From Proteromonas lacertae (taxonomy: Eukaryota), in NCBI GenBank assembly GCA_002245135.1, contig NGBS01001164.1:124001-188000 (forward strand): DNA of 64,000 nt. Reading direction: 5' to 3'. Numbering within the stretch: position 1 is the stretch's first letter; each line of letters opens with the position of its first letter. Positions 7,976 through 53,267 of this stretch are shown one piece after another. The position numbers and the translations under genes were made by a program. Under the pieces are notes generated by a model that saw only the letters and a program-made list of their open reading frames with translations, did no database searches and was not told the origin of the DNA.

Positions 7976-10054
7976 TGAATAGAAGTTCATATATCGCTAC
8001 TTTCAGTTGGAAAAAGAAGTGCGCACCTGGTCCAATCCCGGGATTAACAATCTATGAGAAAGGAAGTAACGGAAGAATGATTGTTCAAGATGGTTATGTT
8101 GATGCAATGTATGATGCAGGTAGTGATTTAAAAGCAAAAGAAGATAAAGGAACTATGAATTATTTCACTGTAGTAAGAGAAGGAGAATATCAATTTGTAC
8201 CAATTGAGTGGAGTTATGAAGTTGGAAATAAGAATTTATCTATTACTTTATCAGGAGACGCTACTGATGATCCAGTTCCAGATAGTATTTACATATATAT
8301 AATTATCAATATAAATAGAAGCTTCAACCGTATTAGAAATCTTATACGAAGGTAAAAACGATATTACAACAACAGTTACTATAATAGGAACAATAACAGT
8401 TGATGAAGAAGTTAGAAGTTTCTCATTCTCATGGAAGAAAACTTACAGTCAAGGTCCAGTTCCTGGTTTTGATATATTATCAGGTTCTCTACATTTTAGT
8501 GATAATTATGCAATTGTTAGTGATGGTATAGTACAGCCACTTTATTTACCAGATAATTCTCGTAAAGTTGTATTAAGTGGAAGTGAAGCATGTATTAATT
8601 TATATATAAGAGGAAGGTTTAATAGTGTCAATTATACTGAGATTAATTTCCAATCTGATTCTACAAGATTGACAATATTTAAATATGGTGATGCTCAAAG
8701 GGGAGGTGTTGGTAAGAGAAGTGAATTATTATCAGTATGTCATGAGTGTAAAGCATCTGGTAGACACAATGTGATTGGTACAGTTACAGGAATTGATAAT
8801 TTAATCAGTCCAATTACATTTGCTTATGAAAAAGAATGTAATGTTGGTAAATATTTAGTTGATATTACTCCAGGAATGTTTGTCCCACATAGAAGTGATT
8901 ATTATGCAGTTAAAAATGGTAAAACTCAACCAGCTTATGGATTTAAGAATCCAACAGTTAAAGCCAGATGGGATGAAGATAAGACTCGATTCTATATGAC
9001 TTCTATAAATAGTTTTGATATTCATCAACCAACTATATATGCATTATATCCTTTTTCTTTCTTTTCTTTCTATTTTTTTATGATTTTTTTTCTTTAACTG
9101 TTGTTGTGTTTTTTTACAGCTGAACAAACTGTATTAGATCCAACTGTATCTGTAATTGGTCATGATGTCACTGAGAATATAATACATGTAGATGCTGATG
9201 GTCCATCAATCGTATTAGAAGTTACTTATTCATGCATTCAAAAAGGTGAATTTCAAGTAATAATGGAAATAAAGTCTGATGGTGGTGAAGAAGGCAATAT
9301 AGTTTTCTCTTGGATTAAAGTGTGTAGACCACATAGCTTTTCTTTCTCTGTTGGTACTTCGTTAGATAGTATGCTTGCTATGATAAATGGAGATAATATA
9401 TCATTTTTTATTTATTTATTTTTTAATTATGTTTTTCTTAATGATTTTGTAAGTTGATCCTAGTATATTATCATTAGCTAAAAATGTAATTGAAGATGGT
9501 GAAGTAAAACCAGAATACTCTAATGAAAAACCATCTGCTGCTGTTACAAGACAAGAATTGGAATCTCGATTTTATATAGCAATATCATTTTTTTTAAATA
9601 ATAATAATATTTTTATGTATCTATTCCTTAATGATTAGTTTAATCAAGAGAAAATTCAACATTGTTATTACATCGTCCACCTACTGTTGTAGTTCAAAAT
9701 CATAAGATATTAGATGCACAATTATTAGGTGATGCTGATGTAAAGAATGGTGTGTCTTTAACAACTAATCCAAAAGAAATTATAGTGAATTATAAGTGCA
9801 AAAAGAGTGGTATATCTAAAGTCGATATTAACTTATTCATTGGTCCAAGTGGTTTACAATATATTCCCATTACATTTAGTGTGATGAAGAATTGTAGAGA
9901 TCCAACCCATTGGAACATTAGATTGCTGAAAGATGTGGTATTATGTGTTGCTATAGTAGTTATATTATTACTGTTATTCCCTTATATAAAATCTTATGGA
10001 AGAAAATGTTGTAAATTCCCTGCAAAGAAGCATGTCTTGGATAAAGATGTATAG
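7372..10054 (+). CDS. Secreted type I membrane protein with repeated Ig-like/beta-sandwich modules; contains three U12-type introns
   Basis: Signal peptide MQNSSLSFYFLLFIRLFVVANA; recurring VxYxC..G....FSWxKxC module; TM VVLCVAIVVILLLLFPYI; one continuous frame obtained with 4 GT-AG and 3 AT-AN introns. Confidence 0.75.
7915..7971. repeat. (TAT)n microsatellite filling a GT-AG intron (7914-7982)
   Basis: About 19 TAT units between GTATTA and GAATAG. Confidence 0.85.
9046..9117 (+). other. U12-type AT-AC intron (72 nt)
   Basis: 5' ATATCCTTTT, branch TTTCTTTAAC (9089-9098), 3' TTTTAC; splicing gives GCA TT|A GCT GAA CAA and joins ORFs 8669 and 9101. Confidence 0.85.
9398..9452 (+). other. U12-type intron with AT-AA termini (55 nt)
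   Basis: 5' ATATCATTTT, branch TTTTCTTAAT, frame restored only by GAT AAT|GTT GAT CCT (intron ends GTAA). Confidence 0.7.
9582..9643 (+). other. U12-type intron with AT-AA termini (62 nt)
   Basis: 5' ATATCATTTT, branch TTCCTTAAT (9624-9632), frame restored by ATA GCA|TCA AGA GAA, which removes the in-frame TAA at 9641-9643. Confidence 0.7.
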
Positions 10055-10299
10055 AGTAGTAAAAATCTAATTGAGTTTTGATATGATTATTTTTATTATT
10101 TTTGAAATTGTGTTTATATAGATTCATTTTTTAATTTAAAACGAATATATTATTTTGAAGTAAAAATCAGTAAGATAATTAAAATACTATTTAGAGATAT
10201 TTTCATATATTAGTAGAATAAAAATTAGTTGGGATTTTAGAAGAAGAAAATACATTTAAAAAATAGATATATTAATTAGGTTATAATAATAAATGTTAT

Positions 10300-22611: not shown

Positions 22612-23899
22612 CTACTACTGAGTTATTGTCTATGAAAATATATTAACAAATTTATGAAATAAAATAATAATATAGGATGGATAAAAAAGAGAAATAGCAT
22701 TGATAGTTTTAAAGATATAAATAATTTGATAAAAATTTAAAACCTACCTTTGAAACGGCTTAATTTTTGATTATGAAATAAAAAACATCATGACATATTC
22801 TATAGAATATAGAGTATTAAAAAATACTTTAATTAAGTTATATCTTGCTAATTTGTATATCATATTTATTTGGTTGATTAAGTTGTATTATTTTAAATTT
22901 AACAGAATCTGCACAAAGAGTATTGAAAATATATAATAGCGTGCATATACATTACAAATTAATGCTTTAAATTACAATTTCCTGTACTGCGCATAATCTT
23001 ATTTTTAATTTAATATTGTAACGGATTAATTTTTTAATTTTTAGAAAATATTCTATTCTGAAAGACACAAATAACTACGGGTATAACTATCACATCAAAT
23101 TGTCATACAAACATATCATTAAATGTTATTCAAGTGAATTAATACCACAGCGGTTAATCAAATAATAGTATGTTCAATATGAATCGGAAACCACTTCAGC
23201 TGTTCGACATATTTTTAGATAATCTCAGATTTGTAATGGCATCAATATATGTGTATTTTATAATATGGAACAAATACTCATAGTTACGATGCAAAATGAT
23301 AATCAATTGTCCAGTATCACATTATTTATTGTGTTGATACTATTATATCCATATATAATCCAGTAATTAAAATTCTGATTATTCAATTGCAATATTTGCA
23401 CAATATGACTACCCTATTTATAGTTAGTATGTATTATACATTACAAAGCTAAGAATGACTATGATGCAAAATCTAATATACAGTAATAATTCTCTGAACA
23501 AATTATTTTTTGATAGATTTATCCTTACTACATTCATCAAGCGCAGTATTTAATAAATGTAGTTGTATTCTACAGTATTTAGTTCCATTAAGAAAAATGT
23601 GTTTAAGTGAGAAAAGCACCTATTAAACAGCTAATATAAATCTATTTAATATCTATTACCTCGTGTATAATACACATTAGACTACAGAACCGCAATAATT
23701 TTAATAAACTACGAATATAAGAAAATACTCACTAATCTTCGTCGTAGTCTATGAGTACAGGTGGCATCTATTTCATACTTAAGGCATCCATCCAAATGTT
23801 AAATTTGATGATAATTGGATCCTTTTGAAACAGCCAACAAAAAAGTTTTTAAAAATATTTGTAACCGATTAATTCTTGGTTATTTTTTTTGTAATACTT

Positions 23900-24382
23900 A
23901 TGAAATCAAATAAAAAAAAGTATACCACTAGTGCACATAAGAACCTAACCCAGAAGGATTGGCTGGCTTTATTTGAGAGAGTTCAAGAAGTCCGAAACAT
24001 CACTGAAGTGGCAAATGATACAGGTATTAGACGTCAGATATTATCAGAAAAATATAACTTGTGGAAGAAATATGGCAATGAGTACCTATATTCTAAAACA
24101 TGGTCCAACCGTATATTTACTCAAGAAGAAGAATATGAGCTGTTTCTTCAGATCTGGAATTACGATTATACGGTAGATAAAACTCAAAAGTTTTGTGATT
24201 CAGTAATTGCGAAACTTGCAACAGAGTTTTATAAAAATATTTCTAAAGAGCGTGTTGTAAAGCCATTTAAAGTAAGTCTAGGATGGATTATAGACTTTAG
24301 ACACAGGTTTGGAATTAAATTTAGAGCTTCAAAAAGCTACTATTTACAATGGGAAATAATCCAAGCGAGAGGATGTGAATAG
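23900..24382 (+). CDS. pogo/Tc5/CENP-B-type double HTH DNA-binding protein, no DDE domain
   Basis: NITEVANDTGIRRQILS (psq-like HTH); RIFTQEEEYEL...FKVSLGWIIDFRHRFGI (HTH_Tnp_Tc5-like); intronless. Confidence 0.7.
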   Translation: MKSNKKKYTTSAHKNLTQKDWLALFERVQEVRNITEVANDTGIRRQILSEKYNLWKKYGNEYLYSKTWSNRIFTQEEEYELFLQIWNYDYTVDKTQKFCDSVIAKLATEFYKNISKERVVKPFKVSLGWIIDFRHRFGIKFRASKSYYLQWEIIQARGCE

Positions 24383-24899
24383 TAAATAGGGAAGTGTTGT
24401 AAGCAACATACAATTTAATTTAAGGCGAAAGTCTGTTTTTTTTGTTATTTTATTAAGTAATACTCTTATATTTGTTATATTATGTTTGTTAGTTGGAATA
24501 TAGTTGAAGTTGAATGTACTATTGTACACATTAACACTTTAGAGCTAAAAATATGTTTAAATATATGCTTATAGCTAATAAACAATAGAATAATATAATA
24601 CATTGTATTTATGTATTTATATGCTGTAAGCATTTAAGTTATGCATTGCTTGCATAAAGTGCAATATTATTACATATGCAAATGTCTAATGGCCTACATG
24701 GTATTATATAACCATAAAAAAACAATATATCTATTGATTTTAGAATTTAATTTAAACTGGTAATTGATGATTTAATTAAAAGGGGCCTTCTATTTAAAAA
24801 ACATAATATAAAATATAAAACATTAATATAACTGATAACAATGATAAATAGTAATTAATTTATATTATTACACAAATATTCATAATAACAACCTTCTTT

Positions 24900-25424
24900 T
24901 CATGATGAACCTAGACTATTTATTTGTTGTTCATCATTTAGATGAGATGGCTTTACAATTGACCACTTATAATATTGACCTCTTTTCATTTCTTCTATAA
25001 CATCATGTCTAAATCTAAAATCATGAAGCCAACCTGAACTTACTCGAAATTCTTTGACTTTTCTTCTTTCTGAGACATGTATAAATGCTTGTGATGCTGT
25101 TTCCTTAATAAGATTGTCGTGCACAGGGCCTCCACAACTATTTACAACGTAGCTATTCAGAATCTCTATAATAATTCTTGTTTCTTCCTCATTAGAAAAT
25201 ATCCTATTCCATTTACCCCTTGTCTCTGACGCTTCTTCTAAGAGACCACTATTTTTCCATATATGATACTTTTTGGCCAGTGTTTGCCTCCTGATGGAGT
25301 ACTTCTTAGAAACTTTTGAGAGATTTGATTTTTCTATTTCTTGAAACAGCTGTAGCCATTCGTTAGATGATATAAGGTAAGAATCTGTTGATCTTCGAAT
25401 TCTTTTTGGCTTATCTCCGCTCAT
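24900..25424 (-). CDS. Paralogous pogo/Tc5/CENP-B-type double HTH protein, no DDE domain
   Basis: NLSKVSKKYSIRRQTLA; RIFSNEEETRI...PVHDNLIKETA...FRVSSGWLHDFRFRH; colinear with 23900-24382. Confidence 0.7.
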   Translation of the reverse strand: MSGDKPKRIRRSTDSYLISSNEWLQLFQEIEKSNLSKVSKKYSIRRQTLAKKYHIWKNSGLLEEASETRGKWNRIFSNEEETRIIIEILNSYVVNSCGGPVHDNLIKETASQAFIHVSERRKVKEFRVSSGWLHDFRFRHDVIEEMKRGQYYKWSIVKPSHLNDEQQINSLGSS

Positions 25425-25857
25425 TCTTCAAAATTTATTGAACGAGATATTCTATTGGTTCATCAATATTTATTGACATCATGTTACGTCAATAAATCCA
25501 AAAAAGTGCCATGATAAAAGTAATGTACAGATAGCATCTAAAACATGATATTTGAAGAGACATTGTTATATAATAATGAACCATTCTATCAAATTCTCAA
25601 AATTATTTAAGATAACTGCATTGACTTAAAGATTTTTTCATTTCATCTCATTTCATCACTATATACAATTAAGAGAATTATTCATTGATCAGTCTAGCTT
25701 AATCTGTCTAACACACCTACTATTTTTAATTTCTATTCTATACGCTATACATCACATTAACTAACAGATATTCATTTTGATTTGATCGTATAGATGCTAA
25801 TAGAAGATAATAAATCAAAAATTTCAAAATAGAATTAAATTTTATTCTTTTTGTTTT

Positions 25858-27025
25858 ATGTCCTTTTTAGACATATATATAGATCCTGAAATAAGATGGA
25901 GTAGTTACTATCGTCGAAGTAACAAATCTAAAGATAAAAAACACATTTTATGCTTTCCAGATCACTTAATAAGTGGACATCGAGTATGAAAAGATGAATA
26001 ATATGTTATATGAATAGAATACTGGGTATTGTGGTAGACCAATAAAAGTTTACATAAATAGTTATTTAAGTGTTCCAACTTTAATAATTTGTAGTAGAAT
26101 ATACGAATATAATGGTTCAAAGACAGGATTGAATATAGATGATTTAATTCCTAAATCTCAATTTGAAGACAGAGATATTCCTTTCTATTTTGGAGTTTCA
26201 GTTGTATTTAAGATAATAATATAATTAAAATAGATTGATGGTAAAGAATATATAATAAATGATAAGTTACAATCCTGGAAATTTAATACATACCTTCAAA
26301 GAGTTGGTCCATTATACTGTTTAGTAATTTATGGATTGATATTATGTGATAATCAACATTACTACAAAGTGATGTGTAAAACAATCTCTCCTTTATTTCA
26401 TATCTATTCATCTCGTAGATCTTTCTCTGGTTTAAATTGTACAAATGAAAATTTGAATATGGAAGTATATAAAAACACACCAATTCCCCAATATTTAAAG
26501 ATTAAATTATCAGAGACTGATTCATTGATTCTATCTCCTCTTTTAATCAAAAATTTCCCATTTTTAAGATATAAGAATGCAACTAAACAGATGAAGTTGT
26601 ATGACTCACTTCCTGAAATATTACTTCGTTTATCGAATGATTGTAATAATAATGATGATCCTAATGCTATAATAAAAACAGAGAATAATCCTTATCCATT
26701 TCCAGATTCAGCACAAATCATCAAATATGTTGAGAGTTTTAATGATTTTCGAGAATATATGATGGATATTCTTAATTCTGAGCCTGTAGTAACACAATAT
26801 GTCTATTCTCAATATGGATATAATGTCAAACTAAGAAAACTTGGATTGACTAAAACTTCAAAAGAAAGAGAAGAAATATCCTATTTAGGTGGAAGTATGA
26901 ATCAAATGTATGAAAGAGCAACAAAAGGTATATATTATTTAGATAGATATGGAAATAAGATAATGTGTCATCCTCCAGATATTCTCCGTGAATACTATGT
27001 AAACCAAAATTTATCAAATGAATAA
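25858..27025 (+). CDS. Hypothetical protein (~367 aa), tandem copy 1; introns 25984-26017 and 26204-26233
   Basis: Spliced frame MSFLDIYIDPEIRWSSYYRRSNKSKDKKHILCFPDHLISGHRNTGYCGRP...KTISPLFHIYSSRR... Confidence 0.8.
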
Positions 27026-27281
27026 TTAGAATTAATATTGAATAATAATTTATTGGTTGTATTGTTTTTTATGAATGTATTTCATGTTATAATTGAGAGA
27101 ATTATTCATTGATCAGTCTAGCTTAATCTGTCTAACACACCTACTATTTTTAATTTCTATTCTATACGCTATACATCACATTAACTAACAGATATTCATT
27201 TTGATTTGATCGTATAGATGCTAATAGAAGATAATAAATCAAAAATTTCAAAATAGAATTAAATTTTATTCTTTTTGTTTT

Positions 27282-28449
27282 ATGTCCTTTTTAGACATAT
27301 ATATAGATCCTGAAATAAGATGGAGTAGTTACTATCGTCGAAGTAACAAATCTAAAGATAAAAAACACATTTTATGCTTTCCAGATCACTTAATAAGTGG
27401 ACATCGAGTATGAAAAGATGAATAATATGTTATATGAATAGAATACTGGGTATTGTGGTAGACCAATAAAAGTTTACATAAATAGTTATTTAAGTGTTCC
27501 AACTTTAATAATTTGTAGTAGAATATACGAATATAATGGTTCAAAGACAGGATTGAATATAGATGATTTAATTCCTAAATCTCAATTTGAAGACAGAGAT
27601 ATTCCTTTCTATTTTGGAGTTTCAGTTGTATTTAAGATAATAATATAATTAAAATAGATTGATGGTAAAGAATATATAATAAATGATAAGTTACAATCCT
27701 GGAAATTTAATACATACCTTCAAAGAGTTGGTCCATTATACTGTTTAGTAATTTATGGATTGATATTATGTGATAATCAACATTACTACAAAGTGATGTG
27801 TAAAACAATCTCTCCTTTATTTCATATCTATTCATCTCGTAGATCTTTCTCTGGTTTAAATTGTACAAATGAAAATTTGAATATGGAAGTATATAAAAAC
27901 ACACCAATTCCCCAATATTTAAAGATTAAATTATCAGAGACTGATTCATTGATTCTATCTCCTCTTTTAATCAAAAATTTCCCATTTTTAAGATATAAGA
28001 ATGCAACTAAACAGATGAAGTTGTATGACTCACTTCCTGAAATATTACTTCGTTTATCGAATGATTGTAATAATAATGATGATCCTAATGCTATAATAAA
28101 AACAGAGAATAATCCTTATCCATTTCCAGATTCAGCACAAATCATCAAATATGTTGAGAGTTTTAATGATTTTCGAGAATATATGATGGATATTCTTAAT
28201 TCTGAGCCTGTAGTAACACAATATGTCTATTCTCAATATGGATATAATGTCAAACTAAGAAAACTTGGATTGACTAAAACTTCAAAAGAAAGAGAAGAAA
28301 TATCCTATTTAGGTGGAAGTATGAATCAAATGTATGAAAGAGCAACAAAAGGTATATATTATTTAGATAGATATGGAAATAAGATAATGTGTCATCCTCC
28401 AGATATTCTCCGTGAATACTATGTAAACCAAAATTTATCAAATGAATAA
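27282..28449 (+). CDS. Hypothetical protein, tandem copy 2 (identical to copy 1)
   Basis: Duplicate at offset +1424. Confidence 0.8.
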
Positions 28450-28705
28450 TTAGAATTAATATTGAATAATAATTTATTGGTTGTATTGTTTTTTATGAAT
28501 GTATTTCATGTTATAATTGAGAGAATTATTCATTGATCAGTCTAGCTTAATCTGTCTAACACACCTACTATTTTTAATTTCTATTCTATACGCTATACAT
28601 CACATTAACTAACAGATATTCATTTTGATTTGATCGTATAGATGCTAATAGAAGATAATAAATCAAAAATTTCAAAATAGAATTAAATTTTATTCTTTTT
28701 GTTTT

Positions 28706-29864
28706 ATGTCCTTTTTAGACATATATATAGATCCTGAAATAAGATGGAGTAGTTACTATCGTCGAAGTAACAAATCTAAAGATAAAAAACACATTTTATG
28801 CTTTCCAGATCACTTAATAAGTGGACATCGAGTATGAAAAGATGAATAATATGTTATATGAATAGAATACTGGGTATTGTGGTAGACCAATAAAAGTTTA
28901 CATAAATAGTTATTTAAGTGTTCCAACTTTAATAATTTGTAGTAGAATATACGAATATAATGGTTCAAAGACAGGATTGAATATAGATGATTTAATTCCT
29001 AAATCTCAATTTGAAGACAGAGATATTCCTTTCTATTTTGGAGTTTCAGTTGTATTTAAGATAATAATATAATTAAAATAGATTGATGGTAAAGAATATA
29101 TAATAAATGATAAGTTACAATCCTGGAAATTTAATGGATACTTACATAAAGTTGGTCCATTATACTGTTTAGTAATTTATGGATTAATACAAAGTGATAT
29201 TGTGAATCACTACAAAGTGATGTGTAAAACTGTTTCACCTCCATTTCATATCTATTCATCTCGTCGATGTGTATCAGCTGGATGTGAAAGAGATCGAAAA
29301 TTAGATATTGAAATATACAACCCAACTACAATAATTCCAAAATACTTAAAAATCAAACTATCAGAAAATAATTCATTAATTTTATCTCCTCTTTTAATCA
29401 AAAATTTCCCATTTTTAAGATATAAGAATGATATTGAAATAAATCTAAATGATACACTTCCTACAATGTTTCTTCATTTATTAAAAGAAAATACTGATAA
29501 ATGTAATAGAATTGTAAATACCGAAATAAATCCTTATCCATTTCCAGAATCAGCGAAGATTATAAAATATGTAGAAAAATTTAATAATTTTCGAGAATAT
29601 ATATTGGATATTGTTAATTCAGAACCAATAGTAACACAATATGTTTATGCAAAATATGGAGATGATGTTAGAATAAGATCACTTGGATTGACTAAAACCT
29701 CAAAAGAAAGAGAAGAAATATCCTATTTAGGTGGAAGTATGAATCAATGGTTTGAAAGAGTTGCTGAAGGTATATATTATTTAGATAGATATGGAAATAA
29801 GATAAGGGCACAACTTCCAGATATATTAACAGGTTATGTAAATCAATCTTCTAGTAATAAATAA
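28706..29864 (+). CDS. Hypothetical protein, tandem copy 3 (5' identical, 3' diverged)
   Basis: Identical to copy 1 up to 29135, then a diverged paralogous sequence (VSPPFHIYSSRR...). Confidence 0.8.
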
Positions 29865-31390: not shown

Positions 31391-32700
31391 ATGGACAAAA
31401 CTAGTGGTCTTACTGAAGAATCAAAATTATTAGCCAAATTATGTTATTGTATACTTATATTTTTATCCCTAGTTAATCAATGTGAAATAAATCGAATATA
31501 TGATGTTTTCACTAAATCTTTAGCTCCGTATTTTATTTTAGTAATACTCTATTCCTTAGAAAAAAAGATAAACTGTCTTTCACAGAATTTAATAAATTTT
31601 GTGATGGTAAACAATTTCATACTGTAGTCAGATTTTTTGAGAAATATAGTATAAGAATATATTAACACATACCTAGAATTCTTGAACTGGAACCATTTTT
31701 TTCAAATTATAGTAATTTTAGGGTTTCTTCGTTTAAATATTTCTCTTAACAGTATATAATATATAATATTAACTCTTAAATAGTGGTTACAATGATATTA
31801 AACATTCAAGATAACTCATCATTATCATCTGAAGATACTTCTCGCTTATTTATAGAAATTGGAGGAAGTGATGTTGCTACAACAATAGAAAGGAAGAAGC
31901 CATTTAATTATCCCTTAGCTTTTTCTAATTTATATGCTTATATAGTTAATCATCCAGAGTATTATTTGAAATTAACAAGATATCAAAATCAGTTGTGTCT
32001 TTTATTCTTTAATCAGCACCGTATTAATGAAATGCATCAACGGCCTAATAAAATGCAGTACTTAGAGCAATACCAATTAAAGAATGGTAAAAGCTATCCG
32101 ATAGATTCGTGTATAAATATTATAAAAAGATATTTAATAACGCATGATCCTTATCCTTACAGATATGATTATGAATGTAAACCTCACGATGAAACACAAT
32201 TAATGATTAAGTTGTTTCCTTATATTAAATTAATTAGTAGTAGATCAGAATCATTCAATAGAATAGAAAATCCAATGATACAGTCGATCAAAAGACATGG
32301 TGAAATGAATTCAGCAAGATATGGTAACTCAGCTTTATTGAAGCGAGGTAATGGTGCTGGTGGTAATGGAAATTGTAATGCAAAACGTAAAACAATGCAT
32401 CATGTGTATGGTGTTGAATCATTAAGTAGAAGTGAATTAGTGAATAATACATCCTCACCTAGATCATATGATGAAGGTGATAGTATTACTAATAATTGTG
32501 CTGTAAATAAAATATCCACTCATCCATCTGAAGAGAAGAGAAATGACGAAAATACTACTGATAGTGTTCCTCCTTTGAGATTGACTAATTCAATCTTACA
32601 TCGTTCTTCTTTATCATCTATGCATGGCAGATCCACCTGGAAGTCTTCATTGCAACAATCTTTTCTTCCAGGTGCAGTTCATGAGGATAATTGTGTGTAA
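31391..32700 (+). CDS. Degenerate EF-hand (NCS/calcineurin-B-like) family protein, paralogue A
   Basis: Spliced N-terminus LAKLCYFNQCEINRIYDVF..LSFTEF..LNWNHFFQ; 4 short introns; RYLITHDPYPYRYDY motif. Confidence 0.6.
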
Positions 32701-33142: not shown

Positions 33143-35717
33143 ATGGTATAACTTATTCATGTAATATATTTTTTATAGCCACTTCAATTGATTATCAAGG
33201 TATAAAAATATTATTTGAACTTTTTTTATATTTCTTTTTCTAGAAAAAAATCTGTGCCAGAAGTGAGAGAGTTAAATGTGTAGATATACATCCACAATTC
33301 CCATGGGTAATATCTTCACTCTACAATGGTACTGTTGTAATTTGGGATATAAGTAAGGAAGAGATGGTCAAATCATTTGAAATGTGTAAAGAACCTGTTC
33401 GTTGTGTAAAATTCGTTCCAAGAAAGCAATGGATCGTAGCAGGAGGAGATGATTTCAATATGAGAGTATACAACTACAACACAATGGAAAAAGTATATAA
33501 ATATTAATTTACTTATTGTATATAGATAAAAGTTTGGAAAGCACATAAAGATTATATCCGATCAGTTGATGTTCATCCTTCAGAACCACTTATGTTATCC
33601 TGTTCAGATGATTTCTTGATCAAATTATGGAACTGGGAACAAGATTTCACATGTGTAAGAGAATATGAATCACATAGTCACTTTGTGATGCAAGTACAGT
33701 TTAATCCAAAAGATCCAACAATATTTGCCTCTTGCTCATTGGATAAAACTATTAAAATATGGGATATTAACACAAATGCACCTCACTTCACTATGTCTGG
33801 TCATAGTAAAGGTGTAAATTGTCTTAATTTTTACCCAGCTGGTGATAAACCATATTTAGTTACAGGTGCTGATGATAGAGTATAATATATTATATTATCT
33901 ATATATTTCATTAATAATTAGACTGCTAAAATATGGGATTATCAAACCAAAACTTGTGTTCAAACATTAGAAGGTCATTCTGATAATGTAGTAACAGCTG
34001 TATTTCATCCCAAATTACCATTACTTCTAACAGGCAGTGAAGATGGAACTGTAAGAATATGGCATAGTACAACTTTTAGATTAGAAACTACATTGAATTA
34101 TGGTATGAATCGTGTATGGACTATTTCAGTACATCCAACCAGTAGTTTAACTGCAATTGGTTATGATGATGGCACTGTGGTGGTTAAACTAGGAAATGAT
34201 AATCCAATTATAAGTATGGATAAATCTGGTAAGTTATTATGGGCTGAAAATACTGATATTATTTCTGGAAATGTGAAAGGTGTTGTTGCTGAAAGTGGAA
34301 CTGGTGAAGGTGATAAATTACCTATTAATACTAAAGAAATATCTTTTTTTATTATTTTTAAATACATTATAATTTTCCATTAACTCTATTTGTTTTTTAC
34401 TTAGGAAAATGTGAATTATATCCTCAATATTTAGCTCACAATAGCAATGGCCATTTCTTCTTAGTTTATGGTGATGGTGAATATACAATCTATACAGGCA
34501 GAGTATTGAGAAGTAAATGTTATGGTCCAGCTGTAGAAGCAGTATGGTGTAGTAATGGTACTGGTGATTATGCAATTAGAGAATCATCAACACAAATCAG
34601 AATATATCAAGACTTTAAGGAAATTAATAGTTTCCAATCACCAACATCAATAGAGAAATTATTTGGAGGAGTTTGCTTAGGTGTTCAATGTGATGGTTTT
34701 ATATTATTTTATGATTGGTATACATGTAAATTAATAAGAAGAATCGATGTACAATGTAAGAATATATTCTGGTCTGAAGCTGGTGATATGGTCAGTTTAG
34801 TTTGCCAAGATACATTTTTCATTTTACACTATGATAAAGATGTAGTAGCATCAGCAGTAAAAGGTGAAGTTAGTAATGAAGGAATAGAAGGATCTTTTGA
34901 ATTATTATATGAAATAGCTGATAATGTAAAGAGTGGATTATGGGTAGGAGATTGCTTTTTATTCACTAATAAGAAATCATTGAATTATTGTGTTGGTGAT
35001 AATGTTATTAATGTTAATCATTTACAAAGTTCAATGACTATTTTAGGTTATTTAGCAAAAGAAAACAGAATATTCTTAGTTGATAAAGAGAAGAATATTA
35101 TTTCCTATGAAATATTGAGTAATTTCTTAGATTATCAAACATATGTATATCGTAAGGAGTTTGATGCAGCTAATGAATTATTAGGTGAAATCCCAGAAAC
35201 ACATTATGACAAAATAGCTAGATTTTTAGAAGGTCAAGGTTATAAAGAAGAAGCATATGCTGTAGTAAGAGATTATGATCATAAGTTCTCTTTAGCTATC
35301 GAATTGAATAAATTAGAAGATGCACAGAAAATGATTGAAAGTAATGTGTTTGATGATGAAGGTACAGAAGAATCTATTATGAGATGGAAACAGTTGAGTG
35401 ATTTAGCTTTAAGTAGAGCTAATTTGAATTTAAGTGTGTATTGTGCTGAAAAGGCTGATGATTTGAGTGGATTGTTGTTGATTTATAGTTGTACTGGTAA
35501 TAGAGAAGGTTTAAGAGGAGTGGCTGAAAGAGCATTGAAAGCTAAAGAGTTTAATACTGCATTTGTTAGTTATTATACAATTGGAGATTGTAATGGATGT
35601 ATAGAAACATTATTAGCTAATAATAAAGTTGCTGAAGCAGCTATTTTTGCCAGAAGTCACTTGCCTGAGCGTGTTGATGAATTAGTGAAGTTATGGAAAG
35701 AGTCTATTACAAAGTAA
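33143..35717 (+). CDS. COPB2: Coatomer beta' subunit (Sec27/COPB2); first exon is only the ATG; one U12 intron; 3' end uncertain
   Basis: MPLQLIIKKKICARSERVKCVDIHP..WD40 repeats..LNYGMNRVW..KELGKCELYPQ..WKQLSDLAL..EAAIFARSHLP. Confidence 0.93.
34339..34400 (+). other. U12-type AT-AC intron (62 nt) in beta'-COP
   Basis: 5' ATATCTTTTT, branch TTCCATTAAC, 3' TTTTAC; splicing gives conserved KE|LGKCELYPQ. Confidence 0.9.
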
Positions 35718-35870: not shown

Positions 35871-37182
35871 ATGTCTAAAGCGGAGTTTGACCCTTTAGAT
35901 GAGGTTTCAGTAACACTGGCTCAGCTGTGTTTTTGTATAATCCTCATATTCTATGTTCAATGTAGTTAACAACAAAGAGGTTGAACAAGTGTTTGAAACC
36001 TTCAAGAAATTTTCAGATGCGTATAAATATTTTTATTTTATCGTTATTTTCTGGATAGAGAAACAAAAGAAATGGATATAGAAAGATTTCAAAGATTGAT
36101 AGGTATTAACAACAAAGCTATTGCGAAATATTTCGAATGTTATAGTATAATACTATTCTTTCATCATAATATCCACTAGTTCACCTTAAATGGAATAATT
36201 TTTTTCAATTTTTCTTAATAAACACATATGCACCATCAGAAATCATGGTAAAATGTATTTTTATCTGTTTAATATGGTAGGTTACTTTTTATATTTGGGT
36301 GTAAACTATGATAATCCAATAGAAGAATGTCAATTAACTACTCTTCTTGAAGTAACTTCAAAAATAGGCTATTTACAAGATCCAGTATTCAAAAAAGAGA
36401 TGTATTATAGCATATTTATATTGATTTGTTTTAGATCTTTTCCTACTGACTTCACCACGGTCATGCAATACTTAGAAACACATAGAGATTGTGTATTATC
36501 GTTATTATGGTTCAGAGACCATGTAAAGCATTGTGTTTTTACAGATGATCTTTCATACGATATCTCCTCAAGAAGACAAAGAATGTCTAATTATATGAAA
36601 TACAGAAATGAACATTTAGGTAAAATCCCAACTGAAAATTGTTGTGATCAACTAAAACGTACAATGAAGAAATTACCTCCTTTATATCAACATGATTATG
36701 AAATTCATTACTCCTCAATAAAAGATCAAGTTGATTCACTTCTCAACAAATACAAAATGATGTTTTTATTACAACCAATTCAAAAACATGAAATTCCAAT
36801 ATTTGAATCTCTGAAAAGAGATGGTGATACTCTTTCAATGAATAAATATCGAGTTGAATTATCTGCAAAATGTCAACCAGCAAATAGACCTTCCAGACCT
36901 CGTTCTTTAGTGGCATCTCATTTAAGTTCTGAAGAAGGCTCGATTGTTCAAACTGTCATTTCAACCAATTCAGTATCTAAACCTTCCAGAAATAATAGTC
37001 TTCAATGTGTATATAAGCCATTATTAGTTACAAATATCTCATTTACTAATAATATCAATTTAAATAAAAATATATTCCCAACTAGACCTTTATATTCTCC
37101 TTCTACTATAACTGAATCGAATGTATCTCATTCATATATTCCAATACCTGGAGCGATAGATGAATTTAGTCCAAAATCGTAA
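35871..37182 (+). CDS. Degenerate EF-hand family protein, paralogue B
   Basis: LAQLCFFNNKEVEQVFETF..MDIERF..LKWNNFFQ; first four intron positions match paralogue A; CDQLKRTMKKLPPLYQHDY. Confidence 0.6.
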
Positions 37183-38699: not shown

Positions 38700-40900
38700 T
38701 TAAAATGGTGTTGGAGGAGTTGGTGGCTGAATTATCCTTTTTTTCTTACCAAACAAACTTTGAGGTAAATCTGAAGTGACAGAAGAATCTGAAGTAACTT
38801 CCAAAGATAACTTCAGTTTCTTTACTGATTTTATACTGTAATCTAAATGACGTTTTACATGTTCTATCATTATTTTCTCTGATATTTCTTTTTCTAATAA
38901 TCCATAATTCAACAAAGTGTATTTACAAAGTGCAACTGTTGAATCTATTAAGTTATTATTTGCTCCAATTAAATAAGGATCTTTTGTTGCATTATGAACT
39001 AATGGATGTAATAATCGTTTTATCTTTTCTGTGTTTTTATTTTCATAGAAGTTGGCATTTTGAATTTCTCCTGAATATGTATTTGTTGTGGATTTTCCAA
39101 CTGTGATCGAAGAAGATGATGATGATGATTTTGCTGAAACAACTGAAGATAATAAAGATGATGTTGAAGATAGATTAAATTTCATTCGTTTACTTTTTGG
39201 AGCAGCATAATGATGTATAAATGGATGTTTTAGAAATGAATCATTGATATTAAAATTAATTGGATTTTGGGATGTATAATCTGGCATTTGACTTGTATCT
39301 TCTTTTGAAAAGTAGTTATATTCACCTAATTTCATTTCATTTAATAAATTCTTTGTTTTTGAATGTATTCTATGGTATTTGAACAGTTGTTTGTCTTTCT
39401 TTGTTGTTCCATCTTGATTGAATGTGTTGGTTAAGTATTTTGTTATTACAGCTGGATCTAATGTTGTTTGGCTTGACATATCTGTCAACTATTGAATTAT
39501 ATATTATAACTAATAAAATATACAAATGAATTCTTTCTTTTTGTTCCTTTGCTTCCTACCTTTTGAAATTGACTTTGCCATTTATTCATTTGTTCTTCCT
39601 ATATATATATATATAGTAATTAATAAAATAGAAATAATACAGTTGGATTTGAATAGTTATTCTTCTCATAAATAAATAATAACTTCTTCTCATATTCATT
39701 TTGAATGGAATAGGACAATAAGTTTGGAGTTTTCTTTGGTATTTTTTCTAACTCTGTTTCAATAGAAAACTTATCATTCTTCTTACTCTCTTTATTATAC
39801 AACTGAATCTCTATATTCTTATCATTATTATTATATTCTAATGAATCAAATGAATTGAAATATGTGTATAATTCATCATTCTTTGGAGATAAGATGGAAA
39901 TATATACACTATCATTTGCATATAATATACCAATTAAAGAGTTATTCATATCATTTGTTTTTGTTGTGATCCTACACAAATAAAGTAAATTCCTATTTAT
40001 ATATTGCAATAACTGTTGTTGATAAGACATTATTTTATACTGTTCAATTACAGAATAAAGTAGTATCGTATGAAAAACTGATTTCATTTGCATTGATTGA
40101 TATATCATTATATGCGTATATTTATCATCTAATATTCTCTCTTTTGTAGTAATATAAGGTATTAGTGACTGTAAATATATCTTCACTGTTTTAGTAATAA
40201 TTGACATATTATTGCTAGTTATTATCCCTGACCAATCAGCATCCCAAGGATAAATGCATAATTTATCAATTTCCTTATGCCATTTCATTATTGAGCAATT
40301 ATTTCTGAATAAATCACTAAGACTGTTTATAAAAGATTCATTTAAATGATTATCACATTCTGGTGTTAGAAGAGTAATATGCATATGTGAAAAAATTGAT
40401 AGAAAACTAACTAAACATCCTAATATGGGATATATTTCTTTATTCATTTGATAATGTAATGTTACATGATCTCCACTTGGTATTAGCCATATTAAATGTA
40501 TAGCTTCATCTGATGATATCGTTGATAACAATGTGTTTAAATTCAAGTACATTTTCTTTATTACATCTTTTGTAGGTATTCTCTATAACTATTAACAATT
40601 AAAAAATACATTTTTGTTAGGCTCAGCCTTTCTATTTAACTTATTAGTTAAATAATTCACATATTCTGTCCAACTATTAACATTTTGGAAGTTACAATCC
40701 GAGCCTTTTAAGTTAGGATGTATATATGAATATAATCCATCTATTTATTTATAATTATACAATATACCTTCTTTTGACAGATTGGAATTTATAACGGATA
40801 AAAACATTTCAATAAACGACTTATTGCAATCGCATCCCAATTCTTTATCATAAAAATCGATTTCTTCTATATCTTCAGAGAAATAAATAAAATGAGTCAT
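38700..40900 (-). CDS. Hypothetical protein, about 4 short GT-AG introns
   Basis: Long minus-strand ORFs 39620-40552 and 38700-39488 joinable by GT-AG introns; ATG at 40900; no family recognised. Confidence 0.6.
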
Positions 40901-40964: not shown

Positions 40965-42031
40965 ATGTCTAAAAATCGTCGATTCTATATATCAAACGCT
41001 GCAATATCAGGATGTATCAGTGGTATGCAAAAGCAAACAATATATTATATAGGTGCTGCTCAAACTATCATTCTACAACCATTAGATATGATAAAAACAT
41101 CATTTCAAGTATATACTGGTAAATTCAAATCAAAAACTATTTTGTCTACTTTTAAAGATGTAGTGAAACAAGAAGGCTTTTTAAGATTGTGGAAAGGTTT
41201 GACACCAGCATTAGTAGGAAATACAGCCTCCTGGGGTTTATATTTTGCATTTTATAACAAAGGCAAATCTCTGTTATTACAATACAAACACAAGTACAAT
41301 ATGACCTATTATATCTAATAGAGACAAGCTAACCACTATGGAACATCTTATAACTGCATATTGTGTAGGTTCAGTATGCTTATTATTCACAAATCCAATA
41401 TGGTTAATAAAGACAAGAATGGAAATACAATCGTGATATCATTTTAATATATTAATATATATGCATATACAATTCCTTAATAATATTTACTGCTTTACCC
41501 AAATCGCATCATTTTTACACAGGTTTAGTTGATGCAATAACGAAAGTATATAGTCAAGAAGGGATAAAAGGTTTTTATAAAGGAATAATTCCATCACTAA
41601 TATTAGTATCAAATGGAGCAATACAATTTATGACTTATGAATTTTTAAGAGTTCGAGCAGTGAATAAACATAACGAAATAGTATATATATAACATAAATT
41701 TTCTTTTTTTAAATATATATATTTTGTATAGACTTACTTAGATTCATTATATATGGGTGGAATATCCAAGGTTATTGCCTCTACCACTACATATCCATAC
41801 CAAGTAGTTCGTTCTAGATTACAACAGATAGGTGGAATTGAGAGATATGGAGGAACTTTAAAGTGTATAATGAAGATAGTTAATACAGAAGGTTTTTTGT
41901 CTTTATATAATGGAATACTCACTAATTTACTGAGAGTTATTCCTAGTTCGTGTATTTTATTTATGTCTTATGAGATGATAAACAAACATTTGTTGAAGAA
42001 TAGAAATGAGAAATATCATGAAGGTTTATAA
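40965..42031 (+). CDS. Mitochondrial carrier, folate/FAD transporter (SLC25A32/Flx1)-like; one U12 intron
   Basis: Three PxDxxK-type repeats: QPLDMIKT, NPIWLIKTRM, YPYQVVRSRLQ; SWGLYFAFY; SNGAIQFMTYE. Confidence 0.85.
41436..41490 (+). other. U12-type AT-AC intron (55 nt)
   Basis: 5' ATATCATTTT, branch TTCCTTAAT (41473-41481), 3' TTTAC; TCG TG|T GCT TTA removes a TGA and restores ...YTGLVDAITKVYSQEGIKGFYKG. Confidence 0.88.
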
Positions 42032-42202: not shown

Positions 42203-45200
42203 ATGAGAGGAGGATATAGCAAATTAACTGACTCTATCACACCAGGGATGAGTATAACCATCAATGAACACTCATCAGTACCAAAGTCTTTTGCCCAAAA
42301 TCCACAGACTGATGGATATGACTTAATTATGTCTCATGTCTCCTATACAATCACTGATATACCGGACATAGAAGATACTCATATCCCTAACTTGTTTAAC
42401 GACCTTATTTATGCAAGTAAGTTAATAGCTAGACAACAGAAGATGAAAGCAAAACCTGTTTTAACTGATCTTAATCTTATATTTTCAGCAGGTACTTCTA
42501 CGCTTGTATAACAATTATTTGTATATTCTATAATTTAGATTGTCGGTACTCCAGGATGTGGATCTACATCACTTTTAAATGCATTATATGATAATTTGAA
42601 TAACAAATATCTATCTGGTAAAATAATGTATAATGGCAAACAAATATCAGATTATAAGAATTGGAAGAGTATTGCCTCATATTGTAGTCAATTCGATTAT
42701 CACAATGCATTATTAACAGTGAAAGAAACGTTAGAATTCGCTAGACAATGTCAATGTGGAAATGATACAAAAATTGATTTAGTATATTTATGTATTATAT
42801 ACTGTAGACTTCTCTTGCAGAAAAAGTGGATGATTTATGTAAAACTATTGGTTTAGAGAGATGCAAAGACACTTATATAGGTGGAATGTTGGTAAAAGGA
42901 TGTAGTGGTGGTGAAAAGCGAAGAGTTACAGTTGGTGAAATGTTATTAGGTTTTCACAAGATATTATTATTAGATAAATTCAGCACAGGTTTAGATAGTG
43001 CAATAACAAAAGATATAATTAAATTCCTGACTAGTTATGCAAGAGAAATGAACAATATTGTTATTACTGCATTATTACAACCAGATCCTGAGATTATTCA
43101 ATACTTTGATCAATTGATTATATTAGAAGAAGGTTCTATTATTTATTGTGGTACTCCCTTTGACGCTGTTACTTATTTTGAGAGTATTGGATATAAACTA
43201 AATGGAGAGTCTGATATTGGAAGTTTTATAAGTAATATTGGAAATGAAGGATTTAGAACATTAATGAAGAAAGTATTATTATTATTATTATTATTACATA
43301 GAGGGAAGCATTATTGAAATCAAGTTCATCTACAAAAATGACTGAAAGTACTACCAGTATGGAATCAAAGTCAATATTTGCAAGGAAGAAGAATAAATCC
43401 AAGTCAGTCTTATACAGTAGTTATCAATCTTGTAGAGGTTTGAAATATGATAGAGTATATATATATATATCATCTTTATAGAATTTAGTAAAAAAACATG
43501 AAATTGTCCATAATTATGAAGTATCAAAGTATTATTTAACAGAAGAAAGAGAGATTGATATGTCGTTAAAGAATAAATTACAACCCTTAGAAGAAGGTCC
43601 AAATAAAGATGCTTATAGTAAACAATATTCACTTTCATTCTTCTCAATGTTATATACAATATTCAAAAGACAAACAAGATTGACACTTCGTAACAAATTA
43701 TATATTATTGGAATATTGATTGGTTATATAATTGCTGGTGTATTTCTTGGATTTGTATTTTATGATATTACTAAAAACACTAATAAATTGACAATATTTG
43801 GAGTGTTTTTGTTTTATTTGGTTCTTATTGCTGTTGGACCAGCTGCTGAATTTGGTACAATCATGGAACAAAGGAAGGTATTGGCAAAACAAATAACTGG
43901 TAAATATTTCTCCATTTCTACATTCATTATTTCATCATTAATAGCTCAATTACCATTTATGATATTATTACCTCTATTTGGTGGTATTCCAATATACTTT
44001 ATATCTTCATTATCAAAGGCAAATCATTATAAACATCTCTTAATCTATTGTCTTGGTGGTATTGCTACTTCATTAGCTGTTACACCATTATTTAGATTGT
44101 TTATGTTTGGTTTCTCGAGTGAATTTGTAGCTTTAGGATGTTTACCATTTGCTGTGTTTATTATGACTAATTTCACTGGTTATTCTGTTCCTTATGATAA
44201 AATATCATGGATATTAAGATGGATTTATTATCTTAATCCATTAAGTTATGGACATAAAATATTAGCTGTTAATGAATTCTTAAGTGGTGATTATGGCCTT
44301 GAAGGTAAAGCAGATTTAGCTGCAATGTCATTTCCAACTGATGATAAGAATATGTGGCAATGGTTTGTCAGTTTAATTGTAATGCATATCATATGTATAT
44401 ATTATTAGTTATAATTTATATATTATTATGTTTGAAATAGATACTGCTTTAACAATATTTGTATTACAGTGTCGTAGATGGGCTGCTGAATATTCAGTTA
44501 TTGCTTCTGATAAAGAAATCGATGTTGATGAAGCAGAAGATATCAGTTATTCAATACCGCCAGGACAAGAAGTATCACTAGTATGGAAGGATTTAAATGT
44601 GTATGTAAATACAGATAAAGGTGAAAAACAGTTGTTATATAATATTAGTGGATATGCAAAACCAGGTACATTAACAGCTTTAATGGGAGCAAGTGGTGCT
44701 GGTAAGAGTACATTATTAGATGCATTATCACATACATCCACAAAGACAAAAGTAACTGGTGATATATTATTCAATGGACAAAAATTATCATTAAATACAC
44801 AAAGTCATGTATTAGGTTATGTTGAACAAGCTGATAATTTACCAACTAAAGAGACTGTTGAAGAAGTATTGTTTTTCAATGCAAGATTGAGATTAAGTAG
44901 TAAATTGAGTGATGATGAAGTTAGAGCAAAAGTTGATGAAATGATAAAAGTATTATCATTAGAAGATTATCGTAAGATTATTATTGGTAATCCAGGAAGT
45001 GGTATTTCAATGGCAATTCGTAAATTGATAATGACAGGTATTGAACTAGTAGCAGATCCAGCAATACTATTCTTAGATGAGCCAACTACAGGTTTAGATA
45101 GTAAAAGTGCATTAATGGTAGTAAAAGTATTGAACAGAATTGCTGTTTATGGAAAATGTGTAGTTTGTACAATCCATCAACCATCTTATGAGATATTTCA

Positions 45201-50024: not shown

Positions 50025-52039
50025 ATGAAGAGAAAGTCAATAAACCGTCCACTTGGCCTTCACAAGAGAATAACAATTTACAAACATGACAGTGATAATT
50101 TACCTCAACCAATACCTCTTATATCACAAGACAATAAGGACGGGAATGGATTGATAAACGTATGAATATATTTATGTAAATTATTTATATAATCAACTCT
50201 CTTCTCTATTTATTATCAAAATAACATTTTTATTAATTTTTAATATAGAGTCCTCCTCGTCATAAGAAGATAATTAACATACCAACACCAGAAATCATTA
50301 CAATTAGTGATTATGATGAATTATTTCCATCCAATTACGATATGCCTACGTGTTACATCCGATACATTGCACCATCTAGTGAAGAAGAGGAAGAATTCAT
50401 GGAATATGAAGCAGATCAAGACGATATTGTATATTAATTATCATATCATCAATAGGATTGGTTAGAAAATCATCCAATATATGGTAAAAATGGTAAAGAA
50501 AACTCACAAATCTCAGTAGACACATTTGAAAAAATAATCAACACATTAGAAATATTAACAGCCAGAAATGGTGATATAATCCCTTCTAACGATGCAGAAG
50601 TAGGATGTTATGGCTGTTTTACATCTCCGCACCCTGATTATTCAAAATTAATAAGTGATATTCGTACACATTGGCTAAATAAAAGGCATAAGATCCATAA
50701 GCCATTATGTCGAAGATACTGGCCTCAGACACCTGTAACAGATACAAATCCACATTTAGTGTTTAGGCCAAGAGAAAAAGAGAGATATAAATTAAGAAAA
50801 CAAAGGAAAAGTGATGAAGAAGCATATAATAAGTTGAAAGAATTACAAACCAATTTAGATGAAGCAAAACAGATTATTGAGTTAATATTAAAGAAAGAAA
50901 AGATTAAATTAAATTCACTTGAATTTATGTGTGAAGAATATCAACAAAGACTATTTGATATAGATCCAAGTAATACGACTAAGGAAAGAAAACGAACAGT
51001 TTCATTAATAGAAGGATTGAAAGATATAACAAGTAATAATTATTCAATACTTAGACCAAAAATATCATTATCATCATCATCAAATGCATATTTAGACGAA
51101 ACTACTCGAAGAAGAATGAAATTATTTGGAAACAATAACAATAACATTAATAATAATAATAATAATGATATGTTAGGAAGGAATAAAAGAATGTGTTTAT
51201 CACTATCCAGTGTTAGTAATAGTAATATAAATAATAATATGGATATAATCAGTAGAAATAATAAACTAATCTGTTCTTATTTGAATCATATAGCTATCGA
51301 TGGTGATCATAATAATGATTGTATTCCAATTATTGGCTTAGGACAATCGTTAGATAAATCAACAGGAATGGTTCCTCCATTGTTATTACCTAAGAATTAT
51401 AATCATATTCCTTCTGATATTGGTAATCCATTCCCTATATTTATACCAACTGATAAATATTATGGCAAATTAGAAGAAGAGAATGAAGATGATGATGAAG
51501 AAGATGAAGAAGGAGAAAGTAATTACGATAATAATAATACAAACACAACAACAACAACAACAACAACAATAAATACATATAATGGTTATAAGAATGTAAA
51601 AAAGAGACGAAAACAAAGTTATTTATTAAGACCACGGATAGGAAGAGGAGGAAGAATTATACTAAGCAGAATACCAGTAGATGATAATAATCGATGGTAT
51701 AATAAAACAGAGAAATATGTAACAAGACCTCCATTATTTACAGCAGAGAGAGATCAACCAAATAAATCATTAACATCTCAAGCAACCTCTGTTACTGAAC
51801 TTGCACCTAATAATCCATTATATGGTGAAGAAAGTATTGTACCATTTCATCCATTACCTGATATATATGGAACACCTTATACTGCTTATAATTTACCTGA
51901 AACTGATTATAGTTGGGAGAAAATATATTCATCTGTTAAGACTATGACTTTGCCAAGTGATGCACTTAAAGTGAGATGTCCAACTGCTGGAAATTCACAG
52001 AATAATAATTCATCAGAATTATTTCGATTCAATATATAA
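50025..52039 (+). CDS. Enhancer of polycomb-like (EPC/Epl1, NuA4 subunit)
   Basis: IPTPEI..YD..P..YIRY; EYEADQDDIDWL; FEKII..LE; HWLNKR; DTNPHLVFRPRE; RPRIGRGGRIILSR. Confidence 0.85.
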
Positions 52040-52111: not shown

Positions 52112-52209
52112 ACAATTTTATATCTGTTTGTTTGGTTTATTGTTTCTATAACATATACACTCTCAGTTCCATGTTAAAAAGCTTTGTTTTAAAGAAAGAA
52201 TAAAGAATA

Positions 52210-52296
52210 AAACGACTATTTATTTTGAGATATCAAACAAGTTTGAAAATGTTTTTCTTAAAATCTCTTGTAGACGATATATTGTCCGCAATATAA
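52210..52296 (+). pseudogene. Orphan promoter and exon 1 remnant of the pseudokinase-LRR family
   Basis: AAACGACT..GAGATATCAAACAAGTTTGAAAATGTTTTTC aligns with 53596-53643; ATG at 52249, TAA at 52294. Confidence 0.65.
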
Positions 52297-52538
52297 CTAT
52301 CTGATACTCAATATATTATCAGAATAATTACATAAATACCCAAATCTTAGTTAAATATGTCCAAAAAGTATTAAAATTCACTTAGAAATTGGAAATATTA
52401 TTCTCAAAATTATCAAAATCAAATATAGAATTTGATAATTGAAATTTTAAATTACATATATAGATGAGTTTATTTATTTATGTTATTTTATTGATTTACA
52501 TTAATAAATATATTGAAATCAGAATAAAAATGAATTTC

Positions 52539-53267
52539 TTAATTCTTTATAGCAGAATCAAATAACCAACCTTCATCTACATCATATTCTAATACACTAA
52601 GCTCATTTCCACCAATTTTACTATAAGCTAAAGGAGCTGATTTCCATTTCAAACCATTTGATACTAAATACTTATCCATACTATCAAATCTATTTAACAT
52701 TTATTAATACATCATAAAATATACAATCTTCCTATATTCATTACATAAGTAAATATCGATCTACATGGAATTCTTACTCTTATTACTTTGGCTTTAGGTA
52801 ATTTTACTACTTTTAAACCGATTTCTTCTAATTTTTCTTTTTGTTCATATGCATCTTTTATTGCTATTCCTACACTCCATACTTGCTCAGATGCAGGGGT
52901 TTTATCTGTATGATATACATCAATATATGCTTCATATTTACGATTATCGCTTAAACCAGCTTTTCTCAAAAGAACATCAAGTTCATTATATGCATAACTC
53001 ATTGATTCGAATGTTCCAGTTCGAGTTATAAATCTATTAAACCATTATAATATCAATATTATACACATAATCCATTTCTTTCATCTCAATAACATCTCCA
53101 ACTGCTTCTGTTCATTTATTAAGGATTCAAATTTAACAATACATTGGTAAATGCAAAAAAGGATATGAAAAATAACTCAAATACCATAAACTACTCACTC
53201 CAACAATTGAAATCACTGCACATACAACAGTTATGATTGGTAAGAAGTAAATAATAATCATCAACAT
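52539..53267 (-). CDS. N-terminally anchored GyrI-like (TEX264-like) small-molecule-binding protein; one U12 intron
   Basis: Hydrophobic N-terminus; VYHTDKTPASEQVWSVGIAI..GLKVVKLPKAKVIRVRIPCRS; first intron AT-AC. Confidence 0.6.
53110..53166 (-). other. U12-type AT-AC intron (57 nt)
   Basis: Minus strand 5' ATATCCTTTT, branch TCCTTAAT, 3' GAAC; TTT TC|A GAA GCA GTT; the nested GT-AG alternative gives a stop. Confidence 0.88.

Follow-up and report, generated by a model that had tools for sequence, protein, structure and literature searches.

The closest described minor-intron system is that of Blastocystis. According to the covered parts of the report on its ST1 genome, this organism contains 346 U12 introns, typically AT-AC, in 319 of 6544 genes and among 35,412 introns in total, together with all four minor snRNAs and seven specific proteins (PMC5608401). 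The statement of the initial annotation that U12 introns have been reported in Blastocystis is therefore correct. In the covered portion of the ST1 intron table at least 339 rows begin with ATATC, and among the rows listed 336 read ATATCC, three read ATATCT and none reads ATATCA (PMC5608401). The 73 ATATC introns examined from this source are 37-53 nt long (median 39 nt, compared to ~30 nt for the major introns), they end in AC (38), AG (30), AA (3) or AT (2) and occur up to three per gene, while the 13 shown of 75 GTATCCTT rows measure 29-33 nt, which is the major length (PMC5608401). The sections covered of the work by Larue and Roy describe the Blastocystis minor introns as 77% AT-AC and 49% phase 0 with a median of 39 bp, name AT-AA as the commonest non-canonical minor end and give about 26% AT-AC for human minor introns (PMC10639083). 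A recent gain of the AT-AC-rich and phase-0-rich Blastocystis introns is suggested there and left open, and more genomes of the clade are requested (PMC10639083).

Here we compare this system with a 64-kb stretch of AT-rich DNA (27.7% GC, 72% AT), to which we refer as the window. A 14-3-3 gene at 57581..58399 on the plus strand, found by homology, was used for placement: its best named match is Blastocystis (77%), and in a tree of 50 rows, which represents one gene and carries a long-branch warning, the window groups with Blastocystis (100/99) in a sister subclade (97/83). The window also encodes a full IFT57 domain, recognized by Pfam in a ciliary gene at 61765..63004 (plus strand, start approximate). 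Flagellar genes have been lost in Blastocystis isolates, and in the covered text the tortoise Blastocystis combines this loss with a GC content of 21-23% (PMC12129017). In view of the 27.7% GC and the IFT57 gene observed here, a tortoise Blastocystis was rejected as the source. The DNA thus likely comes from a flagellated opalinate that is not Blastocystis but its sister. Our literature search brought up no paper that deals with minor introns of either Proteromonas or opalinids, the 2023 Proteromonas genome paper lying outside its coverage, and U12 introns are not mentioned in the covered portions of Lind et al. (PMC12129017; preprint PMC10690189).

Six interruptions of reading frames in the window start with AT, and we consider it highly probable, judging from the sequence, that they are genuine U12-type introns of a Blastocystis-kind minor spliceosome in what is likely a flagellated sister lineage of that genus. 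All six were found where the initial annotation had placed them. Three of them lie in one plus-strand gene (7372..10054), outlined by the gene finder and homologues, for an uncharacterised protein with repeated domains: 9046..9117 (AT-AC, 72 nt, phase 2), 9398..9452 (AT-AA, 55 nt, phase 0) and 9582..9643 (AT-AA, 62 nt, phase 0). The others are 34339..34400 in the gene of COPB2, the coatomer beta' subunit (plus strand, AT-AC, 62 nt, phase 0), 41436..41490 in a mitochondrial carrier (SLC25) gene (plus strand, AT-AC, 55 nt, phase 2) and 53110..53166 in a small gene on the minus strand (AT-AC, 57 nt, phase 2). The reported ATATC(C/A/T)TTTT start is present in every one of them, with ATATCC twice, ATATCA three times and ATATCT once, and TTT follows at +7 to +9 in each case. 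Compared to the extended donor RTATCCTTT, ATATC and TTT are therefore kept in 6/6, and C at +6 in 2/6 only. TTCCTTAAY is the consensus of the U12-type branch site. In agreement with the initial annotation, sites of this kind lie 19, 10, 11, 16, 9 and 8 nt from the 3' ends, in intron order, with 1, 1, 0, 2, 0 and 1 mismatches, and each AC or AA terminus is in frame and at the usual distance past the branch site. The AA ends of the introns at 9398 and 9582 had not been named before. Retention of any of the six introns leads to a stop, in line with the initial statement that each is needed to restore a reading frame, and their interiors are low-complexity T/A runs.

The motifs were compared with 200 dinucleotide shuffles. 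Donor-like words alone occur at the chance level (18 in the window, shuffled mean 16). When a donor, a branch site with at most one mismatch and an acceptor are combined, six matches are left among the 18 donors of the window, compared to 0.68 on average and 5 at most in the shuffles; these six comprise five of the introns and one chance match antisense to an ORF at 32133. With two branch mismatches allowed, the window contains 11 matches and the shuffles 5.7, which is not distinctive.

The ordinary introns of the window were cataloged by an ab initio gene finder, which was seeded on 30 short introns, penalizes lengths above 55 nt and makes some false calls. It returned 27 genes and 105 raw GT/GC-AG introns, and its strict U12 option, which is built from the same motif as the six introns, added exactly these six. 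A filter for obligate, non-duplicate, AT-rich introns of the form GT..TAG reduced the 105 introns to 65. Their median length is 33 nt, and 54/65 measure 21-45 nt, just as the initial annotation had described most GT-AG introns here. The AT-start introns are longer than this set (Mann-Whitney p=6e-4), though the finder penalized long introns. The proposal of a separate length class is thus upheld as far as the shift in length is concerned, but the ranges overlap, because 7/65 filtered (13/105 raw) GT-AG introns reach 55 nt or more. No GT-type U12 intron was noticed in the initial annotation, and none is present among the GTATC matches in the window or among the raw GT-AG calls of the finder (0/105 start with GTATC). 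The warning that GT-AG predictors would mis-annotate these genes also proved justified: without U12 sites the finder settled on incorrect or longer GT-AG introns at 6/6 sites (108, 85, 32, 95, 151 and 87 nt, in site order), and 4 of about 27 genes of the window are mis-spliced under GT-AG-only prediction.

One could argue that the major spliceosome removes these AT-AC and AT-AA introns, and that ATAT is simply the local GTAT donor with a changed first base. Indeed, 63/65 major donors begin with GTAT, which makes the first base the sole difference over four positions, the +6 position of the six introns is degenerate, and major-type AT-AC introns are known in animals. However, C is found at +5 in 6/6 AT-start introns and in 0/65 major introns, a branch site with at most two mismatches is found in 6/6 and 6/65 of them, respectively, and the lengths differ. 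Additionally, the minor machinery is retained in Blastocystis, as described in the covered part of that report (PMC5608401). Removal by the major spliceosome is thus quite improbable, and U12-type introns are the reading that we follow.

The exact borders of the introns were investigated by comparison with homologous proteins, which are restored by removal of the introns at 34339, 9046, 9582 and 41436; the result is mixed for 9398, and 53110-53166 is without homologues. The COPB2 gene (33143..35717, plus strand, found by homology and the gene finder) contains four GT-AG introns besides the U12 intron. We scored 2228 frame-keeping, stop-free deletions on an HMM of 120 homologues, and the best were 62-nt deletions at the 34339 site: 193.0 bits are reached in the AT-AC register and 160.6 bits by the best GT-AG intron, while the top score of 195.3 bits belongs to a deletion shifted by one to two bases, which has no splice dinucleotides. 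The intron region is reached by 23/109 homologue matches. In the carrier gene (40965..42003, plus strand, found by Pfam Mito_carr and the gene finder; the SLC25A32 label is that of the initial annotation), positions 2-37 of Mito_carr match ahead of the intron and positions 46-91 match from residue 9 after it, so the domain is continuous within one residue, and 37/37 GT/GC-AG alternatives delete part of the matched domain.

The repeat-domain protein, a presumed membrane protein, likely carries a signal peptide and a C-terminal hydrophobic segment, as read by eye. It has no Pfam match and no usable atlas match, and a distant homologue occurs in Diacronema lutheri. A profile search with the exon ahead of 9046 gave 12 proteins, the clusters being mostly Logan predictions, and a metagenome scan with the alignment of the protein gave 317 pattern matches, none of which was confirmed. 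After splicing of 9046-9117 the junction aligns without gaps to P0124, P0126, P0127 and P0154, all of which are without the intron, and on these four the AT-AC intron outscores the top five among nine GT-AG alternatives. For 9582-9643, the best of 23 GT/GC-AG alternatives is 9617-9648 (32 nt, GTAT..AAG), which is beaten by 1-15 points; 17 homologues were compared, the score changes on 11 of them and the AT-AA intron is ahead on all 11. At 9398 the Ile-Ser codons of the donor read-through are kept in P0133, P0134, P0140, P0124, P0127 and P0154, which makes the donor secure. Among the 46 alternatives at this site several gain 8 to 16 points on distant haptophyte-like homologues but lose 42 to 50 points on the nearest relatives; the GT-AG rival 9369-9453, in particular, gains 8 to 9 points on distant homologues and loses 49 on near relatives. 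On these alignments the COPB2, 9046 and carrier junctions can be taken as fixed by homology and the 9582 junction as favoured.

The small gene (52539..53267, minus strand, called by the gene finder) contains two GT-AG introns besides the U12 intron, and its product has an N-terminal hydrophobic segment. An atlas match of high score offers a GyrI-like protein as a lead. Here the intron is indicated by motif and frame only, with a perfect donor and a near-perfect branch site; the nearest of 27 GT/GC-AG alternatives (69 nt, GTTATT..ACAG) has a non-consensus donor.

It could be that some of the six introns are mis-drawn, with true GT-AG bounds at 9369-9453, 9617-9648 and 53108-53176, which would leave three or four true AT-AC introns. 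In-frame GT-AG options do exist at 9398, 9582 and 53110-53166, and the distant homologues prefer 9369-9453 by the 8-9 points given above. Nevertheless, the ten residues removed by 9369-9453 are 9-10/10 identical in P0133, P0134 and P0140, while the read-through past the donor diverges. The rivals end in AAG or CAG, whereas almost all plausible short introns of the gene finder end in TAG, and none of them accounts for the U12 branch site at its locus, which is perfect or nearly so. We regard such a redrawing as unlikely, though less so than removal by the major spliceosome, and retain all six as U12-type introns. A looser U12 setting of the finder produced five further candidates. Four of them (2488-2640, 31932-32024, 39966-40103 and 42381-42416) were rejected, as each lies within an open frame and has a length divisible by three. 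The fifth, 36169-36233 (65 nt, AT-AC), is unlikely to be a seventh intron, because an ordinary GT-AG intron of 35 nt at 36145-36179 also yields an open frame.

Peptide read-throughs indicate that three of the six introns occupy the same codon in close relatives, where their lengths and interiors differ. In the P0121 cluster (84% identical, 15 members), 13 members cover the 9046 site and 13/13 enter the intron at the same codon, after which the read-throughs vary in length and frame. Read by hand, they appear to represent introns of 55, 57, 61 and 62 nt that contain a stretch encoding the branch site and end in AC. In the P0122 and P0129 clusters the break falls at the same position, with codons that fit ATATCT, and the P0150 read-through would imply an intron of about 41 nt. 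The 9046 intron occurs in three related clusters and is missing from three others, so one intron position is occupied in some relatives and empty in others. The P0295 cluster (96% identical), which includes P0387 and P0388, is interrupted at the codon of the 34339 donor, and its peptides point to COPB2 introns of 46 and 52 nt. Given the low-complexity T/A interiors, one might suspect a pseudogene with frameshifts, or errors of assembly in AT-rich runs. However, the same genes are interrupted at identical codons, but with other lengths, in independent public assemblies from relatives, and removal of the introns restores intact COPB2 and carrier domains. Position and signals are conserved while the interiors diverge, a pattern typical of introns and foreign to assembly errors; the error hypothesis is already largely refuted and we assign it next to no probability. 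The same data limit the claim of a higher minimum length: a longer class is supported, but the 55-nt floor is not valid for the whole clade, since read-through peptides point to introns of about 46 and 41 nt in relatives.

If established U12 biology is applied to these introns, the donor would be paired first with U11 and then with U6atac, the branch site would be paired with U12, and the G-G end pair would give way to the terminal A together with C or A. As both long motifs would be required at once, the minimum length would exceed that of the ~30-nt major introns. The major donors of the window have the form GTAT(A/T/G) and differ from a GT-type minor donor by a single base; through this resemblance a minor intron of the GT type would readily become a major one, while only the AT-start introns would persist. 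The AT mutation pressure (72% AT) would additionally loosen the C at +6 and turn AC ends into AA. An Rfam search gave no match of any kind in the 64-kb window, minor snRNAs included, which has no bearing on the genome beyond it.

The initial annotation further proposed an expanded and AT-biased complement of minor introns. The AT bias is supported, and the local share is high: 6/71 filtered introns (8.5%, 95% interval 3-17%) or 6/111 raw ones (5.4%), i.e. 5-8%, compared to 0.98% in ST1 (binomial p=7e-5 to 8e-4). The expansion itself is only suggested. At the level of genes the difference is smaller (4/27 here, 4.9% in ST1, p=0.04); three of the six introns share one gene. In roughly 6,800 rows of the ST1 table, whose row order was taken as gene order, 0.85% of the sliding 111-intron stretches hold six or more minor introns (maximum seven), and 1/60 non-overlapping stretches holds six, while no 71-row stretch reaches six within the rows examined. 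Six minor introns are thus also reached in about 1% of ST1 stretches of this size, which leaves expansion unproven, and since the window was selected for this very feature, it can come from a genome with a share of 1%. The share in the whole genome likely exceeds that of animals and equals, or somewhat exceeds, the 1% of ST1, and the window is probably a rich one.

A genome-wide expansion, in which about 5-8% of introns would be AT-start minor introns gained at new sites, is nevertheless a possibility, although we lean against it. Besides the local share and the 71-row stretches, the patchy occurrence of the 9046 intron and phase 0 in 3/6 introns speak for it, and so do two observations on COPB2. 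In the human/mouse tables of minor-intron genes, as far as these were covered, COPB2 is missing, as are SLC25A32 and TEX264, while the controls PTEN, E2F1 and AP4E1 were found; SLC25A14 and SLC25A30 are listed there (PMC6717393). SLC25A32 is the putative assignment of the window's carrier, and the likeness to TEX264 is presumed. In a metagenome scan for COPB2, 80 loci were kept out of 577, none of which is a close relative, and 79/80 are continuous at the 34339 site (73 by regular expression and six by eye), the remaining one being a contig edge. The absence from the tables and the 79 continuous loci hint weakly at lineage-specific intron positions. However, many of the 80 loci resemble transcripts or algae and hence say little about intron age; together with the gene-level result, the ST1 stretches of up to seven and the choice of the window, this stands against new gain. 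It is a tentative prospect, then, that the flagellated sister of Blastocystis represents the second known large minor-intron expansion, with 5-8% of introns, all of them AT-start, a relaxed ATATC(A/T/C)TTT donor, frequent AT-AA ends, new sites, turnover among relatives and matching changes of U11 and U6atac. If so, annotators limited to GT-AG would miss these introns, and standard U12 models would score them too low. Should the local density hold genome-wide, the lineage would serve as a test bed for the gain of minor introns.

The six introns can be viewed against three known systems. The introns share with those of animals and plants the ATATCCTT-type donor, the TTCCTTAAY-type branch site and the AT-AC and AT-AA ends. 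However, animal and plant U12 introns are mostly GT-AG, make up <0.5% of introns and are biased away from phase 0, whereas here all start with AT and 3/6 are in phase 0. Physarum polycephalum, in the covered text, shows a high density of minor introns, which the window matches locally, and also a C/T wobble at +6 and non-canonical ends missed by GY-AG annotation (bioRxiv 10.1101/2020.10.12.336362). In contrast to the present introns with AT donors and a canonical branch site, its perfect donors are mostly GT (3021 GT and 627 AT), and the branch site has changed to TTTGA (bioRxiv 10.1101/2020.10.12.336362). Expansion, as stated, is unproven here.

Blastocystis ST1 shares with the window AT starts (6/6 here), a class longer than the major introns, clustering of up to three introns per gene, many phase-0 introns and occasional AT-AA ends. 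The U12-type identity and AT bias proposed initially are supported, but AT-only starts, a class of greater length, phase-0 introns and clustering have all been published for ST1 and are not new. The invariant ATATCC donor of Blastocystis, however, is not found: 4/6 introns differ from C at +6, compared to 3/339 among the ST1 rows listed (p=9e-7). AA ends are more frequent (2/6 and 3/73, p=0.04), AG ends are missing (0/6 and 30/73, p=0.08), the lengths of 55-72 nt exceed the 37-53 nt of the ST1 introns examined (p=2e-5), and the branch motif at 8-19 nt lies farther from the 3' end than in the ST1 rows covered. The local share of 5-8% also differs from 0.98%, and IFT57 is kept in this lineage, which is not Blastocystis. 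The same kind of intron in the window and its relatives, a sister lineage, makes it likely that the AT-only minor system predates Blastocystis. What we describe is a genuine variation on the Blastocystis system, from a lineage for which the literature searched contains no earlier record; it differs from ST1 in the loose +6 position, the AT-AA ends and the greater length, and possibly in a higher density.

The major (GT-AG) introns retained from the ab initio gene finder carry an unusually fixed donor across the whole window: GTAT opens 63 of the 65, the +5 position is mostly not G, and the 3' end reads ATAG in 48. An ordinary GT-AG intron of 35 nt (36145-36179) overlaps a 65-nt AT-AC candidate with a weaker donor at 36169-36233 (+), and an open frame results from either choice; the candidate is a possible, though unlikely, seventh AT-AC intron.

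The plus-strand gene at 59648-63100 apparently represents a fusion of a protein kinase with IFT57, as a single open frame (59815-62334) leads from the kinase across a long low-complexity linker into the IFT57 domain. The IFT57 domain is full (Pfam positions 2-352) and spread across two exons, and the kinase looks NEK-like by eye. A second, near-identical kinase gene begins at about 63330.

Three tandem copies of an uncharacterised gene, spaced 1424 bp apart, occupy 25858-29864 (+); their introns are identical, and the array represents a recent duplication or an assembly repeat. At 23873-25427, a divergent pair of ORFs, each encoding a DNA-binding (HTH) domain of Tc5 transposase, likely represents transposon remnants. 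On the minus strand, one sequence of about 90 or more bases occurs both within 51850-51990 and within 57010-57150 (seen at 51941 and 57100).

The uncharacterised repeat-domain family member at 7372-10054 (+), likely a membrane-anchored protein, gave zero matches in Pfam and the atlas. Its distant homologues are patchy, comprising one haptophyte and unnamed eukaryotes. The closest relatives, Logan predicted proteins P0121 and P0133-P0146, lie on Logan contigs of 3.65-3.76 kb in 13 of 15 members, a uniformity that could reflect assembly breaks or gene-sized chromosomes.
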